DNA of 13,232 bases from a virus. Below are positions 1-11,866 of this stretch, one piece after another (positions within the stretch are counted from its first letter, which is position 1; each line of letters starts with the position of its first letter). Position numbers and translations under genes: made by a program. The DNA lies in the UHGV virus genome UHGV-0297100; one strand, written 5' to 3'. Under the pieces are notes generated by a model. The model was not told where the DNA came from. It saw only the letters and a list, made by a program, of their open reading frames with translations, and did no database searches.

Positions 1-145
1 GAACTGCGCCGCAGTAACGATATCCTTCGCCAGGCTTCCGCTTATTTTGCGAAGGCGGAGTTCGACCGCCTCTGGAAAAAATGATGCCACTGCTGGATAA
101 GCTGCGTGAGCAGTACGGGGTCGGACCGCTATGCAGCGAACAATC
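1..145 (+). mobile_element. Truncated IS3-family insertion sequence fragment (IS629/IS3411-like) covering the orfA 3' end and orfB 5' start
   Basis: Frame 1 from the window edge reads ELRRSNDILRQASAYFAKAEFDRLWKK*, a leucine-zipper C-terminus typical of IS3-family OrfA. A second frame starts MMPLLDKLREQYGVGPLCSE at 82, typical of OrfB, with an A-run (GGAAAAAATGATG) at the overlap. The OrfB frame stops after about 30 codons, so the element is truncated near 145. Family assignment is from memory. Confidence 0.65.
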
Positions 146-2687: not shown

Positions 2688-3200
2688 TTAAACGGTATGA
2701 TATTTCATTCTGGCGGCCTCAAAAGCCGCAGCGGCAAGTTCGGCAGTATCATGGTATCCAAGGTTAATACACTTTCCAGACGCATTAATTCTTGCTCTCC
2801 ATTTCCCGTACTTAGCATCCCAAGACACGCCACGGTATCCAGATTTATTATTCTTCTGAATTTTCCTGTTCTGCATATTTTCGGAATGAGTGACAAGACG
2901 AAGATTTGATATCCGGTTATCTGTTCTTACCCTGTTGATGTGATCAATAAAACCATCGGGCATGGTGCCATAAACAATCAACCATGCCAGTCTGTGAGCA
3001 GGGTATGCTTTACCATTAATCATAATCATTAAATACCCATCAGAATTTATTGATGAGCATTTCTTGAAAGCAAAACGAGAGTTCCATGTCAAAGTGGTCC
3101 TCTCTCTTCCCCGCCTCCATCTCCAGTGAAAGTCGCCTGATGATGGATTGTAATCAACAACAGAAAGCACCATTTCTGGCGTTAATTTTATTTCTTTCAT
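2688..3200 (-). CDS. HNH endonuclease with a C-terminal AP2-type DNA-binding domain (homing-endonuclease-like moron)
   Basis: HNH motif region HRLAWLIVYGTMPDGFIDHINRVRTDNRISNLRLVTHSENMQN, followed by an AP2-like segment SGYRGVSWDAKYGKWRARINASGKCINLGYHDTAELAAAAFEAA. RBS AAGG upstream of ATGAAAGAAATA. Appears AT-richer than its neighbours by eye. Confidence 0.8.
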   Translation of the reverse strand: MKEIKLTPEMVLSVVDYNPSSGDFHWRWRRGRERTTLTWNSRFAFKKCSSINSDGYLMIMINGKAYPAHRLAWLIVYGTMPDGFIDHINRVRTDNRISNLRLVTHSENMQNRKIQKNNKSGYRGVSWDAKYGKWRARINASGKCINLGYHDTAELAAAAFEAARMKYHTV

Positions 3201-3320: not shown

Positions 3321-3347
3321 GCAAAAAAGCCCACAGGAGGTGGGCTT
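3321..3347 (-). terminator. Rho-independent terminator, candidate tR' downstream of the late promoter
   Basis: Minus strand reads GCCCAC-CTCCT-GTGGGC (6 bp GC-rich stem) followed by TTTTTTGC. It lies about 50-70 nt downstream of the candidate pR' and upstream of the HNH gene. Confidence 0.6.
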
Positions 3348-3387
3348 GTGATGGTTGCTGAATGCAAAAGCAGCAGCATATGTGAAT

Positions 3388-3417
3388 ATTATGGCTAAAT
3401 GGCTAATTGCATGTCAA
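3388..3417 (-). promoter_or_regulatory. Candidate late promoter pR' overlapping the 3' end of Q
   Basis: Minus strand TTGACA (3417..3412), an 18-nt spacer, then CATAAT (3393..3388). The Q stop codon TAG (3397..3395) lies inside the spacer. The position just downstream of Q matches lambdoid pR'/qut architecture. Confidence 0.5.
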
Positions 3418-3913
3418 GGCTTTTAACAGCAACATGCTTAACTTTCTCAACACGTTTACGCATTTTGAAAGCATTTTGCATTGGTTGGTACAAAACAAAT
3501 AACGACGCTTTCAGGATGTCGTCAATTTCGTTTCTACAGGTTGCCAGTGAAGGTTTTCTCCATCCCTCGCCACCACGTCCACACATCTTGCGTGGCTTTG
3601 CAGTCGCGTGATAGTAGGATGCAATTGCTCGCTTAGATGAACCATGAGCGTAGTAGCTGAGGAGGATGCCAAAGGCTTTCTTGTCAATGTACATGACGGA
3701 ATCGACGACCTGAGAAATCAACATTCCATCATCATCATTACACATTGGCCTTGTCATAACTCTTCCCGGCTCTACGCTCTCCATGAACTTCGCTATTACG
3801 CTGCTCATGCGCTTTTCCAGACGACCTGAATAAACCCATGCGCCCCACAGCTCAAGCCAGCCATTCAGCCAATCGTGCTGTTCTTTGGTGAGGTTTAGCT
3901 CTCTTATGCTCAT
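3395..3913 (-). CDS. Q: Late-gene antiterminator Q (Phage_antitermQ family)
   Basis: Motifs WLELWGAWVYSG...TRPMCNDDDGMLISQVV match the conserved ERWGAW...SRP.C.DDD pattern of QuuD-type Q proteins. It directly follows ninH, and its start overlaps the ninH stop (ATGA). Confidence 0.8.
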   Translation of the reverse strand: MSIRELNLTKEQHDWLNGWLELWGAWVYSGRLEKRMSSVIAKFMESVEPGRVMTRPMCNDDDGMLISQVVDSVMYIDKKAFGILLSYYAHGSSKRAIASYYHATAKPRKMCGRGGEGWRKPSLATCRNEIDDILKASLFVLYQPMQNAFKMRKRVEKVKHVAVKSLDMQLAI

Positions 3914-6913: not shown

Positions 6914-7204
6914 TCATTGCCTTACCTCCATAAGCGCCCTATTAATAAACGCCGTCATTGGATTTGCACATCCCCACCCCGTACCATCTGGATTTCTTTT
7001 AATTGGCTCCTTCTTCACTTTGCGTTTTGCATAAATAACCGTCTTCCACTTACGCTCAACAACACTCAAATGTCCTTGTTTCACCATATGCCTTGCTGCT
7101 TGAGCGATTCTGTTATTTGGTATTCCGGTGATCAGTGCTAATTCATGTGGGGAGAATTGTTCATGAGTTTTCAGATATTCCAGGATGATTTCTTTTCCAG
7201 TCAC
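6914..7204 (-). CDS. ren: Ren-like protein (winged-helix)
   Basis: 96 aa starting MTGKEIILEYLKTHEQFSPHELALITGIPNNRIAQAA..., resembling lambda Ren (MTGKEAIIHYLGTHNSF...) in sequence, length and position after the replication genes. Confidence 0.7.
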   Translation of the reverse strand: MTGKEIILEYLKTHEQFSPHELALITGIPNNRIAQAARHMVKQGHLSVVERKWKTVIYAKRKVKKEPIKRNPDGTGWGCANPMTAFINRALMEVRQ

Positions 7205-8046
7205 GATCTGCTCCTGTAACTATCCCATGTAAACGCAAGAGTGCACCCGCCGCCATCATTCATCCTGTCAATAACACGCTCACCAATGAATGCAGATAGT
7301 TCATCTTTGCTCTGGTTGCTAATCAGGATTGTTGGCTTCATGCACTCGTAGCGGGTGTTGATGATTTCGAACATGATCATCTTTTCCGCCTCGCTTCCAA
7401 ACTGTACACCAACCTCATCGATAATTAGCAGGTCAGGTTTAGTGAACTGTCGGATCACTTCATCCTCTGTGCGGGTGGAGTTTTTCGACCATGTTGATTT
7501 ATATTCTCTGGCAATTTTCAGCGCCGTTGTGAAAATAGCTGAGCTTTGATGTTCCGTAATTGCGTGCCGGGCGATAGCCAGTGCAAGATGATTCTTTCCA
7601 GTACCAGGCTTTCCACACATAACCAGCCCACCGCCTTTCTGTAACCTCTCAGGCCATTTGCTGGCGTATGCCTGACACACCCTGAGCACTCTCTTTGCAT
7701 CGTCGTTGACTGGCTCGTAGTTCTGTAGTGTGCAACCCTTGAATCGTTCAGGAATATCAAGATTATTCAACAGAAACTCGACATTGCGCTTACGTGATTC
7801 CTCGTCGATTTTAATCTTCTCTGCCTGTAGCCGAATAAGCTTATCTCTCATGCATTCCGGGCATTCGCTAGGTCTTGAGGCAAACTTAATTGGCCCAGTC
7901 GAGTAACGGTTACGCTGCTCAAACTCACCATGTTTTTCACAGATGCCAGTGCCAATTTCTACAGATGTATGCTCGATAGCAATTGGCGGAGAACTCAATT
8001 CTGCAAGTTTTTTCTCCAGTTGGGAGATCTTTTCATCAAGCGTCAT
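7201..8046 (-). CDS. DnaC-like helicase loader (AAA+ ATPase, IstB/DnaC family), replication protein in the P position
   Basis: Walker A GKPGTGKNHLA and Walker B LLIIDEVG. Start taken at MTLDEK..., with GGAG upstream, just after the O stop. Confidence 0.9.
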   Translation of the reverse strand: MTLDEKISQLEKKLAELSSPPIAIEHTSVEIGTGICEKHGEFEQRNRYSTGPIKFASRPSECPECMRDKLIRLQAEKIKIDEESRKRNVEFLLNNLDIPERFKGCTLQNYEPVNDDAKRVLRVCQAYASKWPERLQKGGGLVMCGKPGTGKNHLALAIARHAITEHQSSAIFTTALKIAREYKSTWSKNSTRTEDEVIRQFTKPDLLIIDEVGVQFGSEAEKMIMFEIINTRYECMKPTILISNQSKDELSAFIGERVIDRMNDGGGCTLAFTWDSYRSRS

Positions 8047-8048
8047 GT

Positions 8049-8891
8049 TCACTCCTGCGCCCATGAAGGCATTTCAGTTTGTCCGTAATCTTTGGTGGCA
8101 AAGTTTTCCTGCATAGCTCGATGCTGCGGCCTCGGTTGAGATTTCCCCTTTGGAGTCTTGGGCTCAAAAATCCCCTGCCAACCACTGGCGATGCTCTGGT
8201 TTATAATTTCTTCAGGTGTATATCCCTTCTCCAGACTTCTGCTTAGAACGTTGATAGCCTGAGTGACACTTTGCTTAGACTTGATCGACTTACCTATCTC
8301 CTTGCGATAGGTAACCCACGACAACCATGTTTCTGCTGATAACCAATCAGGCAACTCTGTTTCTAGCGGGTCGAACTTCTGAGAAACTTTTTTGGGGGAT
8401 ATAGGGGGTTTATTAATATTTTCTTTTGTCTTTAAAGAATGTCTTTTGTGTGTCTCTAACTTCGAGACATTGAGTGTCTCTAATTTGGAGACATTTTTTG
8501 TCTCTAACTTCGAGACAAAGTTGCTAACTTGGAGACACTTGCTGAATTGCCACGCAGATACCTCACTGTTTACACCGATTTGATTTCCATCCATAAACAG
8601 GCAATTCATTGAAATCAGTTCTTTTTTAGCCTTGTTAACATTCTGCCTTGACAGTCCTGTTAACTGAGCAATTTGCTCATCGGCTATTCGATCTGTTTTC
8701 TTATTGAATCCATATGTTTTCCGGACGTAGGCCAGCATAACTTTCAACTGGCGAGCGGTTAAATCGGCACTTGCGATAGCTTCCAGCAGCTCGTTAGCGA
8801 ATCTGGTGTAACCATCATCGATATCAGCCACTCTTCGCTCCTGTTCAACAGGTTCACTCTTCGGCAGGTAAAATACTTCAGCAAGGCTCAT
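8049..8891 (-). CDS. O: Replication initiator protein O (lambda O-like)
   Basis: Gene upstream of the DnaC-like loader. The coding sequence contains the origin iterons, reflected in the protein repeats VSKLETKNVSKLETLNVSKLET. Start taken at MSLAEVFYLPK..., with GGAGG upstream. Confidence 0.85.
   Translation of the reverse strand: MSLAEVFYLPKSEPVEQERRVADIDDGYTRFANELLEAIASADLTARQLKVMLAYVRKTYGFNKKTDRIADEQIAQLTGLSRQNVNKAKKELISMNCLFMDGNQIGVNSEVSAWQFSKCLQVSNFVSKLETKNVSKLETLNVSKLETHKRHSLKTKENINKPPISPKKVSQKFDPLETELPDWLSAETWLSWVTYRKEIGKSIKSKQSVTQAINVLSRSLEKGYTPEEIINQSIASGWQGIFEPKTPKGKSQPRPQHRAMQENFATKDYGQTEMPSWAQE
8451..8537. repeat. Replication origin iterons inside O
   Basis: Three near-identical 19-bp palindromic units TGTCTCTAA(C/T)TT(C/G)GAGACA at 8451-8469, 8475-8493 and 8499-8517, with 24-bp periodicity, plus a degenerate fourth at about 8522-8537. 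An AT-rich stretch at about 8395-8450 flanks them. Confidence 0.85.
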
Positions 8892-9522
8892 TTCCAACCT
8901 CCGCATCAAAGCATTGGGCTTCAAGAGACTTAACCATCACCACACTGCCATCTGTATTAATAACTATCGATGAGTTATATTTGCTTATCAGTTGCTTCGC
9001 GTAATCAATTCCGGCGCGAATAAGGAAATTTTTCACCGCAGGAAGATGACCAACTACACTACCCAGACCTTGCTCTATAAGCTCCTCATTAAGATCAAGC
9101 TCATTTTCATGGCGAAAAGAAATGAATGAGTCGTAAATTGCGTATTCTGCCGTCTCGCCATTTCTTTCAGGGCCAACCAGCGCCCTTATTTCATTTAGAG
9201 ATTCAGAAAGATCATTATCTTCAAGCTTGAAAAACTCTCGATTATCACTAAGCCTCTCTTTTGCAAAGGCTTTATGAATGAGTTTTTCATCTGATGCGGG
9301 ATTATTTGAATGAAAGGCTGCTATCACCTTAAATGGCTTAGGAACGCCAGTAGAGGCTGAAATTTCTTTAGCCCTAACTTCTGGTGAATGCTTAGTCATC
9401 CCAATCTTATAAATTCCTGGCATGCACTCATTCGAAAGCACATAAACAAAGCCATTTGATTTAAAATCATCTGGCACCTTCATGCTCTTCAGAACCTGGA
9501 ATTTGTCATTTTCGTATGTCAT
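8878..9522 (-). CDS. T5orf172 / GIY-YIG-like domain protein (moron between cII and O)
   Basis: N-terminal motif GFVYVLSNECMPGIYKIGMTKHSPEVRAKEI fits the T5orf172 / GIY-YIG-like pattern. GGGAG lies six nt upstream of the ATG. AT-rich by eye. Domain call is from motif memory. Confidence 0.55.
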   Translation of the reverse strand: MTYENDKFQVLKSMKVPDDFKSNGFVYVLSNECMPGIYKIGMTKHSPEVRAKEISASTGVPKPFKVIAAFHSNNPASDEKLIHKAFAKERLSDNREFFKLEDNDLSESLNEIRALVGPERNGETAEYAIYDSFISFRHENELDLNEELIEQGLGSVVGHLPAVKNFLIRAGIDYAKQLISKYNSSIVINTDGSVVMVKSLEAQCFDAEVGNEPC

Positions 9523-9554
9523 AATTACTCCCGTGGATTGATCCAGTAATTCCC

Positions 9555-9851
9555 TCAGAATTGCATATCAATTTGCTTAAAATCCTCGGTGGCGGCCGGG
9601 GATTTTTTCTTTGTGATTTCATCAAGCGCATACTTAAAAGCCCTGCTAATCGGACTGATGTCTGATGCCATTCCGAAAGCACACAAGACCGAAGCAATAA
9701 ATCTCCAGTCCGTTCTGCTTATCTTCGATTCATGACAGCCAATCATCTTTGCCAGACCGCGCTGGGTAAGCGTTGACAGGTTGATGAGTAAATCTGTTTC
9801 TGCGCGATCAACGTCGCGCTGTGATAGTTTGCTGTAACTTGTTTGTTCCAT
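9555..9851 (-). CDS. cII: CII transcriptional activator
   Basis: 98 aa ending KKKSPAATEDFKQIDMQF, matching the lambda CII C-terminus (KKRPAATERSEQIQMEF). Located between cro/nutR and the replication genes. Confidence 0.85.
   Translation of the reverse strand: MEQTSYSKLSQRDVDRAETDLLINLSTLTQRGLAKMIGCHESKISRTDWRFIASVLCAFGMASDISPISRAFKYALDEITKKKSPAATEDFKQIDMQF
9584..9611 (+). terminator. Rho-independent terminator antisense to the cII 3' region (oop-RNA-like)
   Basis: Plus strand CCTCGG-TGGCGG-CCGGGG (stem with one G-U pair) followed by ATTTTTTCTTT. It is on the strand opposite cII, within the cII 3' coding region, as for lambda oop. Confidence 0.55.
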
Positions 9852-9989: not shown

Positions 9990-10217
9990 TTATGCAGCCA
10001 GAAGGTTCTTTTTGCTTATTTCAAGCATTTCGCTTGCTTGATATTTGCCACCAGAAATCTCTTCGATTTTTGATGCGTATTTCGTTTTCCCAAAAAACTC
10101 AGTCTTAGGGAGGAAGCCGTTTTTGAGCCACTTATAGACAGCCCTTTCGCTAACTCCACAAGCCTTCGCAACTTCAGGGATGCCGACACCTTTAATCGGC
10201 TCATCAAGATTTTGCAT
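9990..10217 (-). CDS. cro: Cro-like repressor (HTH)
   Basis: Start taken at MQNLDEPIK..., with AAGGA upstream. HTH segment IPEVAKACGVSERAVYKWLKNG. Divergent from cI across the operator region. Confidence 0.7.
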   Translation of the reverse strand: MQNLDEPIKGVGIPEVAKACGVSERAVYKWLKNGFLPKTEFFGKTKYASKIEEISGGKYQASEMLEISKKNLLAA

Positions 10218-10232
10218 AGGGATATCCTTTTT

Positions 10233-10303
10233 CGTACTTTCAGTACGCATTATGATTGAACTGAAAGTTTTTGCAAGTGCTTTAGTATCGTACTCATGGT
10301 TCA
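10233..10303. promoter_or_regulatory. OR operator region with divergent PR/PRM promoters
   Basis: Perfect palindrome CGTACTTTCAGTACG (10233-10247), plus related sites TGAACT-GAA-AGTTTT (10257-10271) and CGTACT-CAT-GGTTCA (10289-10303, overlapping the cI ATG). Minus-strand PR candidate TTGCAA (10271-10276), about 16-17 nt spacer, CATAAT/ATAATG. Confidence 0.7.
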
Positions 10304-11003
10304 GAATGAAAAAGTGCGCAAAGAATTCGCCCAGCGGCTAGCGCAAGCCTGTAAAGAAGCTGGTCTTGATGAACATGGTAGGGGAATGGCTATAGCCCGT
10401 GCCCTTTCTCTTTCGTCCAAAGGCGTTAGCAAATGGTTTAATGCTGAGTCTTTACCGCGTCAGGAAAAAATGAATGCGCTTGCGAAATTTCTAAACGTTG
10501 ATGTTGTTTGGCTTCAGCACGGCACTTCGTTAAATGGAGCGAATGATGAAGATACTCTTTCATTTGTTGGCAAATTAAAAAAAGGGTTAGTGCGCGTGGT
10601 TGGTGAGGCAATTCTTGGTGTTGATGGTGCCATCGAGATGACCGAAGAGCGCGATGGGTGGCTCAAGATTTATAGCGATGATCCAGATGCCTTTGGTCTT
10701 CGTGTAAAAGGAGACAGCATGTGGCCTAGAATAAAATCAGGAGAATATGTACTCATTGAGCCTAACACCAAAGTATTCCCGGGTGATGAGGTGTTTGTCA
10801 GAACCGTTGAAGGACACAACATGATCAAAGTTCTTGGCTATGACAGAGACGGAGAATACCAGTTTACAAGCATCAACCAGGACCATAGGCCAATAACGTT
10901 GCCTTATCATCAAGTAGCAAAGGTGGAGTATGTGGCTGGTATTCTGAAGCAATCTCGCCATCTGGATGACATCGAGGCAAGGGAGTGGCTGAAAAGTTCG
11001 TGA
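10296..11003 (+). CDS. cI: CI repressor (N-terminal HTH, C-terminal LexA/S24-like autocleavage domain)
   Basis: 235 aa with an N-terminal HTH region and a C-terminal S24 peptidase-like domain (GDSMWP serine, MIKVL lysine). Divergent from cro. Confidence 0.9.
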   Translation: MVQNEKVRKEFAQRLAQACKEAGLDEHGRGMAIARALSLSSKGVSKWFNAESLPRQEKMNALAKFLNVDVVWLQHGTSLNGANDEDTLSFVGKLKKGLVRVVGEAILGVDGAIEMTEERDGWLKIYSDDPDAFGLRVKGDSMWPRIKSGEYVLIEPNTKVFPGDEVFVRTVEGHNMIKVLGYDRDGEYQFTSINQDHRPITLPYHQVAKVEYVAGILKQSRHLDDIEAREWLKSS

Positions 11004-11080: not shown

Positions 11081-11518
11081 GTGGAACAGGAAAAGATTTC
11101 TTTTGTCTATCCGACGCTAATGCGTGAAGGCATGTTCGCAGGTGGTATTTATGTACCTGACCTGTCAATGGTCATTGATAGAAAAGAGCAAAAAACACCA
11201 ATCGCCGTTACGGCTGGATTCTTGATGAAATCAGTCGAAATGTACGTTATTGAAGTCGAAATAAATGCGATGGATGCCCCATCTCCAACTGAGCATAGCC
11301 TTTCTGGTCACATTCAAACAAAGTACATTGAGAGAATAAAATACGGCGGAAAGTTAGCTGTCTATACCATGCTTTCCGAGAATGCTGACCTAAACAATGA
11401 TGGTTTTTACAGGGTTGTTGTAAGGTTCTATAAGACGTCTAATGGAGAGAAAGTCGGCAATTGCTTAGATGAAAAAGATTGTTTTTTCTATGTTTCGCAT
11501 AAGGACTCAGGGGAATGA
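11081..11518 (+). CDS. Hypothetical soluble protein, first gene of a two-gene module downstream of cI
   Basis: 145 aa ORF starting at GTG with AAGGA six nt upstream. No recognisable domain and no predicted TM segment. Its stop overlaps the next ATG (GAATGAGC). AT-rich by eye. Confidence 0.6.
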   Translation: MEQEKISFVYPTLMREGMFAGGIYVPDLSMVIDRKEQKTPIAVTAGFLMKSVEMYVIEVEINAMDAPSPTEHSLSGHIQTKYIERIKYGGKLAVYTMLSENADLNNDGFYRVVVRFYKTSNGEKVGNCLDEKDCFFYVSHKDSGE

Positions 11519-11817
11519 GCAAATCGCATTTGTATGTTGTTCCTACAAACAATGAACCCTTGGTTGAAAATCACCCACAAGAAGATGATAATCATAAATA
11601 TGGAAATGGCGGTGGGGGTGATGACATGCTTGAAAGGGTCAAAAAGCTAGAAGAACAAATGGCATCACTTGTTACAGATGTTGCTGTAATTAAGTCTAAC
11701 TATGCCACCAAAGAAGATTTGCACAAAGAGATTGGATCGCAGACAAAGTGGATTGCAGCAACCATAATCGGCACGACCGGTTTAGCTTTGGCTGTCGCTA
11801 AGTATCTTTTTGCCTGA
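11515..11817 (+). CDS. Hypothetical small membrane protein (coiled coil plus C-terminal transmembrane helix), second gene of the module
   Basis: 100 aa with an acidic Gly-rich N-terminus (GNGGGGDD), a coiled-coil-like LERVKKLEEQMASLVTDVAVIK, and a C-terminal hydrophobic helix WIAATIIGTTGLALAVAKYLFA. Translationally coupled to the upstream gene. Confidence 0.6.
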   Translation: MSKSHLYVVPTNNEPLVENHPQEDDNHKYGNGGGGDDMLERVKKLEEQMASLVTDVAVIKSNYATKEDLHKEIGSQTKWIAATIIGTTGLALAVAKYLFA

Positions 11818-11838
11818 CATCTGAAACTCAAGCAACCA

Positions 11839-11866
11839 ACCCGGCCTCAGCGCCGGGTTTTCTTTG
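11839..11866 (+). terminator. Rho-independent terminator ending the cI operon (tImm-like)
   Basis: ACCCGGC-CTCAGC-GCCGGGT forms a 7-bp GC-rich stem followed by TTTTCTTTG, immediately after the module's stop codon. Confidence 0.7.

Follow-up and report, generated by a model that had tools for sequence, protein, structure and literature searches.

Positions 9517-9612 on the plus strand of the window (the whole 13,232-nucleotide stretch of viral DNA analysed here) very probably represent the pO-oop-tO unit of this lambdoid prophage and, judging from the sequence, a true homologue of the oop element of lambda. As such, it appears to be an ordinary lambda-family OOP unit of a kind already known, and passages of PMC5488031 and PMC12197685 have noted OOP-like sequences in Stx phages. 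The only unusual and mildly new point is that the promoter is split at a mosaic junction, with the upstream half coming from a T5orf172 gene and not from gene O.

The predicted oop RNA and its position over cII

The early-right operon of the window lies on the minus strand, and cI, cro, cII, O, and the DnaC-like gene follow each other in the lambda order, which is reversed in the window (Table 1). Beyond the DnaC-like loader lie the nin region, Q, and the lysis genes, and on the opposite side lie N and sieB. The region between cII and the T5orf172 gene comprises 9523-9554 only, and 9500-9522 is T5orf172 coding sequence. There is no plus-strand gene upstream of the hairpin described below, which therefore can terminate antisense transcription only. 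We also noted a plus-strand open reading frame of 48 amino acids (9589-9735), which lies entirely within cII on the opposite strand and, from this position, was treated as a chance antisense frame.

Table 1. Positions in the window of the predicted oop unit and of the genes around it
Feature	Position	Strand	Basis or remark
DnaC-like loader	7201-8064	-	
O	8049-8924	-	
T5orf172/GIY-YIG gene in the cII-O slot; upstream half of pO within its first codons	8878-9522	-	Pfam T5orf172, MUG113
Positional -35 of pO, TGGAAT, 3/6 matches, 17-nt spacer	9497-9502	+	T5orf172 codons 7-9; overlaps CCTGG
pO extended -10, TG-T-CATAAT	9517-9525	+	Identical to lambda TGTCATAAT
CTG-N10-CAG (LexA-box-like) frame spanning +1, place of, CCGTGGATTGATCCAG	9531-9546	+	
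Predicted oop RNA, 77 nt	9533-9609	+	Homology to lambda, fold
Predicted oop 5' stem-loop, 1-10 with 35-44 and 14-20 with 26-32	9533-9576	+	Fold -13.6 kcal/mol, z -3.3
cII	9555-9851	-	Pfam Phage_CII, E 5e-32
Part of cII under oop, last 17 codons and stop, 55 nt; predicted antisense target	9555-9609	-	Open reading frame, Pfam
tO terminator hairpin, 12 bp, GGCG loop	9579-9606	+	Scan, fold, covariation
Terminator U-tract, TTTTTTCTTT	9603-9612	+	Sequence; antisense to cII Lys codons AAG AAA AAA
cro-like HTH gene	9990-10250	-	
cI	10296-11003	+	

We aligned 9480-9625 of the window with the reverse complement of lambda 38585-38729 and found near-continuous identity from TTTGTCATAAT via the oop start point to the end of tO. 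Lambda oop RNA is 77 nt long, with its 3' end at 38599 (lambda 38675-38599). When the 5' end was set at G9533 by the lambda +1 (38675) and the 3' end, in the U-tract, by the lambda 3' end, the predicted RNA consisted of 22 nt of intergenic spacer and 55 nt of cII, as in lambda. A blastn search with the 109-nt unit returned 99% identity in VT2-Sakai, mEp234, and other Stx phages, 92-93% in further Stx phages, 81-82% in HK629 and HK633, and 76-78% in lambda and phage 21; over 100-109 nt, the identity to lambda, HK629, and HK633 is 78-81% (E 3e-14 to 3e-20). HK022 and HK106 were found at 99% identity by a megablast of 8850-9640, and over 9517-9625 the window is 99% identical to VT2-Sakai, HK022, HK106, and mEp234. 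The records of HK629 and HK633 label the homologous stretch as "similar to coliphage lambda oop RNA." Further, the identical RNA (the HK022/VT2-Sakai type) is present in 10 IMG/VR loci, and the RNA of the window is among the commonest types in the 120 IMG/VR loci that have the same -10/+1 motif. Rfam gave no match for the oop element at the gathering score and, at E<=10, chance matches only, to terminator-containing models (Ref55, His_leader, and others) with no oop model among them; membership of the family thus rests on direct homology.

These results bear out the larger part of the preliminary description, which, from the letters of the DNA, had proposed an oop-like terminator antisense to the 3' end of cII and a small RNA of 70-90 nt ending near 9611. 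The gene opposite the hairpin is indeed a Phage_CII gene, the unit is homologous to lambda pO/oop/tO by both alignment and blastn, and the RNA predicted by alignment to lambda falls within the proposed range of lengths. The hairpin and U-tract that it had quoted correspond to CCTCGGTGGCGGCCGGGG (9584-9601) and ATTTTTTCTTT (9602-9612), so its strand and coordinates were right, with an end no more than 1 nt off, and the full stem is about four pairs longer on each side than had been quoted.

The terminator hairpin and the fold of the RNA

A consensus terminator scan defined the full stem as AAAATCCTCGGT / GCCGGGGATTTT, i.e. 12 pairs between 9579-9590 and 9595-9606 that enclose a 4-nt loop and are followed by TTCTTT. 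The plus strand at 9576-9615 reads ...CTTAAAATCCTCGGTGGCGGCCGGGGATTTTTTCTTTGTG..., in which the first four T of the U-tract (9603-9606) double as the base of the stem. The hairpin alone folds at -16.8 kcal/mol compared with -7.65 +/- 2.23 kcal/mol for shuffled sequences (z -4.1), and 0 of 200 shuffles were as stable. The scan recorded 20 terminator-like sites on both strands of the 13.2-kb window, and the hairpin at 9579-9606 has the longest stem among them. We aligned 18 distinct sequences of the lambda and HK022 types and found 99.1% of the cells of the terminator helix to be paired, with two pairs changed on both sides (C-G to U-A and G-C to C-G) and four changed on one side; as the control, the partner strand was slid by 1 to 3 columns, and the pairing fell to 39-49%.

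The conservation of this region could also have a cause on the sense strand rather than reflect an antisense terminator; the cause would be either the C-terminal peptide of CII or a structured cII mRNA that acts in processing, in stability, or as a weak attenuator of the pR operon. The C-terminal peptide KK(S/R)PAATE...QI.M.F is conserved between lambda and this phage, whereas the remaining protein has diverged, and this explains part of the conservation of the region. Further, the hairpin in the minus-strand RNA still folds at -11.1 kcal/mol (z -3.4) and is followed by UUUU. However, this minus-strand version fails the terminator scan, as the long T-run is restricted to the plus strand and the minus-strand RNA has no proper U-run. 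On the cII strand, three G·U pairs of the terminator stem would turn into C·A mismatches, an asymmetry that favours the plus strand and points to a function on the oop strand only, in agreement with the weaker minus-strand fold. Both compensatory double changes alter the amino acid encoded by cII (R>S and R>D; KKK-S-PAATE-D in the window and NKK-R-PAATE-R in lambda), so conservation of the peptide alone cannot explain the pairing, which, by the sequences compared, is kept at the cost of a change in the CII protein. A conserved -10 lies at the correct distance upstream on the plus strand, and the P22-type phages, in which the cII analogue (C1) is unrelated in sequence, again have a strong plus-strand terminator at the same place, 40-50 nt past the same start region. 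Overall, we regard a sense-strand cause as very improbable, and an antisense terminator as the preferred reading of the hairpin.

The whole 80-nt RNA folds at -30.4 kcal/mol (z -4.1), and the fold is predicted to consist of a 5' stem-loop and the terminator stem-loop. No covariation support for the 5' stem-loop was found in the 18-sequence alignment, and its helix is predicted only. We note that the 5' hairpin of lambda pairs in a register that is shifted relative to that of the HK022 type.

A probable promoter split at a mosaic junction

The preliminary description had placed the promoter in the intergenic region around 9500-9530, had pointed to ATAATT and TTGTCA elements, and had suggested that the T5orf172 insertion may have displaced or altered it. 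The approximate place was right, and the CATAAT of pO (9520-9525), which is preceded by TG at 9517-9518 in a TGnCATAAT layout and lies 7 nt from +1 as in lambda, overlaps the ATAATT (9521-9526). The TTGTCA (9503-9508) proved not to be its -35; the spacer between this hexamer and CATAAT is 11 nt, and there is no usable -10 at 16-18 nt downstream of it. Nor is the promoter intergenic: the complement of the T5orf172 ATG (9520-9522) is inside the -10, as is the O ATG in lambda, and the -35 is within T5orf172 codons 7-9. Of the suggested effects of T5orf172, alteration is what we observe, in that the sequence upstream of 9517 has been replaced and the -35 thereby altered, and displacement is not, as the -10, the TG, the spacing, and the +1 are untouched.

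The junction itself is sharp. Homology to all other phages and prophages that have this cII module reaches no further than the TG of the extended -10, which we take as a mosaic breakpoint at 9517, so the -35 and all upstream sequence belong to the T5orf172 gene; no homology to lambda was found upstream of 9517. A promoter scan called no promoter at pO here because the -35 matches at three of six positions only, and, as a positive control, the same scan recovered lambda pO (TTGAGT-17-CATAAT, with the TG present) and tO.

It is conceivable, then, that the unit is an inherited relic in which the promoter, with its upstream half replaced by T5orf172, has become silent or much weaker and makes little or no oop. 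According to passages of PMC5869508, the -10 position of lambda pO was confirmed by mutation, and a lambda construct with 45 bp upstream of +1 had little or no oop activity, whereas 94 bp were enough. Upstream context can therefore matter, and the sequence between -45 and -94 that lambda pO needs is not present here, where all of the upstream sequence is foreign; the weak -35, which falls under the threshold of the scan that lambda pO passes, points the same way. Against this, the -10, the TG motif, the spacing, and the +1 are intact, and the body of the RNA has not decayed, being identical to that of the HK022/VT2-Sakai type. P22, which has an equally non-lambda upstream sequence (orf48 upstream of oop and a -35 of TGGTCA, as seen in the P22 locus retrieved as a BLAST hit), makes abundant 63-nt oop RNA by RNA-seq according to part of PMC13397905, and a mapped, expressed OOP is described for the P22-like phage BTP1, by RNA-seq and mapping of transcription start sites, in a passage of PMC7067206. 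Finally, CCTGG recurs at the -35 position in three unrelated genes of the slot next to cII. We therefore consider a silent relic improbable and expect, by analogy with P22 and BTP1, that pO very likely fires in its T5orf172 context. The arrangement is not confined to the window, as a T5orf172 gene joined to pO recurs in the isolated phage Bas106 (with a P22-type oop there) and in at least 19 complete E. coli genomes. The unit is a natural example of a promoter split at a mosaic junction, in which the -10, the +1, and the RNA move with the cII module and the -35 moves with the next gene, and it could serve to ask what lambda pO needs upstream, a question that the lambda literature has not settled.

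Among the loci collected, four classes of gene occupy the slot (O, orf48, orf53, and T5orf172), and the ATG lies in the -10 in all four. The three unrelated non-O genes (orf48, orf53, and T5orf172) have in common a CCTGG exactly 20 nt upstream of CATAAT (9495-9499, plus strand, in the window), which encodes [Y/F]-Q at codons 8-9 (P ~0.003 in a post-hoc shuffle test). This sharing gives a hint, though not proof, of a conserved DNA element, -35-like or of another kind; candidates for CCTGG are a -35-like element, a Dcm site, and recombination microhomology. A tblastn search with the T5orf172 protein for the N-terminal FQ outside this context returned homologues that align only from about residue 22.

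The +1 carries a further candidate site. A LexA site has been reported in oop-pO (Lewis et al. 1994, as cited in a passage of PMC5869508), and we infer that it corresponds to the CTG-N10-CAG frame over +1, which is intact in lambda, VT2-Sakai, P22, and Bas106 (TACTGGATC.ATC.ACAGGA on the cII strand). This frame is broken in the window by a T>C substitution at 9532 (oop position -1), which, if the frame is a LexA box, could uncouple oop from SOS control. Taken together, the upstream half of pO might act as a movable constraint on the slot genes, with CCTGG selected as a -35-like element or as a Dcm or regulator site, and the change at -1 might have freed oop from SOS control; we offer this combined reading tentatively and consider it rather unlikely.

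Some observations concern how the module may be exchanged. Conservation over the 31 nt of 9517-9547 reaches 93-100% even in phages with unrelated flanks (P22, HK620, and ES18), and this stretch behaves like a linker at which modules are exchanged. There are also hybrid oop sequences, in which the breakpoints lie within the RNA. A scan of GTDB genomes for added diversity revealed no new upstream gene class among 24 hits, 19 of which carry the exact lambda sequence in unrelated taxa, some on contigs of ~48.5 kb. The assemblies with exact lambda pO-oop (loci L127-L149) include Bradyrhizobium, Shewanella, Pseudomonas, Kitasatospora, Ruminococcus, and others, some of the contigs have low coverage, and these hits are most simply explained as contamination of the assemblies with lambda DNA.

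Related units, expected function, and neighbouring features

Compared with lambda OOP, the unit has the same length of RNA, the same 55-nt overlap with the 3' end of cII (lambda cII ends at 38653) and 22-nt intergenic 5' part, the same -10 containing the start codon of the next gene, and, at tO, the same geometry of 12 bp and 4 nt with practically equal stability (-16.8 kcal/mol compared with -17.2 kcal/mol in lambda). It differs in having T5orf172 coding sequence upstream instead of gene O, a -35 of TGGAAT instead of TTGAGT, a different register of the 5' hairpin, two terminator pairs swapped by compensatory change, a broken CTG-N10-CAG frame at +1, and an ori ~980 bp from pO instead of ~350 bp. 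HK022, VT2-Sakai (Sp5), HK106, and mEp234 share with the window 80 nt of identical RNA sequence, the -10, and a cII of 98% identity, but in them orf48 (48 amino acids) lies downstream of cII and the -35 is TGGTAA; the single substitution at -1 sets the window apart from these phages. For P22 oop (antisense to c1) and BTP1 OOP, expression is known from RNA-seq. The RNAs of these phages are shorter (~63-67 nt) and, as they come with a different cII/c1 module, are unrelated to that of the window in the sequences of body and terminator. The records of the HK022-type phages do not label the element as oop, and that of VT2-Sakai annotates no oop, pO, or tO there. The value of the present analysis is mostly one of annotation, as it labels cII-antisense regulation here and in many HK022- and Stx-type prophages in which it is now unlabelled.

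By homology with lambda, RNA polymerase would start at G9533 from the extended -10 TGTCATAAT (9517-9525) that holds the start codon of the next gene, would transcribe leftward relative to the pR operon through the 22-nt intergenic spacer and then the last 55 nt of cII, and would stop at the 12-bp hairpin and U-tract (9579-9612), releasing an RNA of ~77 nt with 5' and terminator stem-loops. This RNA would pair with the mRNA of cII and the next gene, RNase III would cut the duplex, and decay of the cII mRNA would lower CII and bias the phage to lytic growth. RNase III-dependent cleavage of cII-O mRNA and reduction of CII are described for lambda only (Krinke & Wulff 1987, 1990, as cited in passages of PMC12197685, PMC3985674, and PMC5869508), and the RNase III and CII outcome proposed here follows from that homology. 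The physiological weight of OOP is modest even in lambda, in which, according to part of PMC2327240, it contributes little or nothing to the removal of CII once SOS has been induced. A possible second effect would act in cis by interference of pO with pR transcription heading for ori, as a passage of PMC3985674 describes for pR transcription entering the lambda ori. Because the distance between ori and pO in the window is nearly 1 kb, as given above, this cis function may differ here. The presumed ori consists of iterons at 8446-8540, inside O, in three to four copies of 24 nt, each with the palindrome GTCTCTAAnTTnGAGACA.

The product of the slot gene (8878-9522, minus strand) is a T5orf172/MUG113 (GIY-YIG-like) protein of 214 amino acids with the RefSeq name "GIY-YIG nuclease family protein," and it matches the PADLOC candidate defence family PDC-S57 (E 6e-29) as well as the PD-Lambda-1 C-terminal domain. 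The gene occupies the same slot in Bas106 and in the E. coli genomes mentioned above (at least 19), and in Salmonella phage S137 the slot holds orf48 together with a T5orf172 homologue of 44% identity. Judging from these matches, it may be a prophage-borne defence or nuclease moron.

Elsewhere in the window, an IS element at the left end adjoins the lysis genes, and an Rfam match to the ALIL pseudoknot (75.9 bits, E 3e-18), which signals frameshifting in IS3-family transposases, lies at 39-138 (plus strand). Between Q and the lysis cassette, an open reading frame of the homing-endonuclease type (2688-3200, minus strand) has HNH_3 and AP2 domains. The 3' end of Q (3395-3913) is overlapped by a near-consensus promoter, TTGACA-18-CATAAT (3417-3388, minus strand), and a terminator (3347-3327, minus strand) lies ~40 nt past this promoter; by analogy, the pair (3327-3417) appears to be arranged like lambda pR'/6S RNA/tR', on which Q antitermination acts. 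On the cI side, the open reading frames 11081-11518 and 11515-11817 are in the position of rexA/rexB and match no Pfam family. Directly after the latter, a strong plus-strand terminator (11838-11859; 8 bp with six GC pairs) probably marks the end of the cI-side operon.
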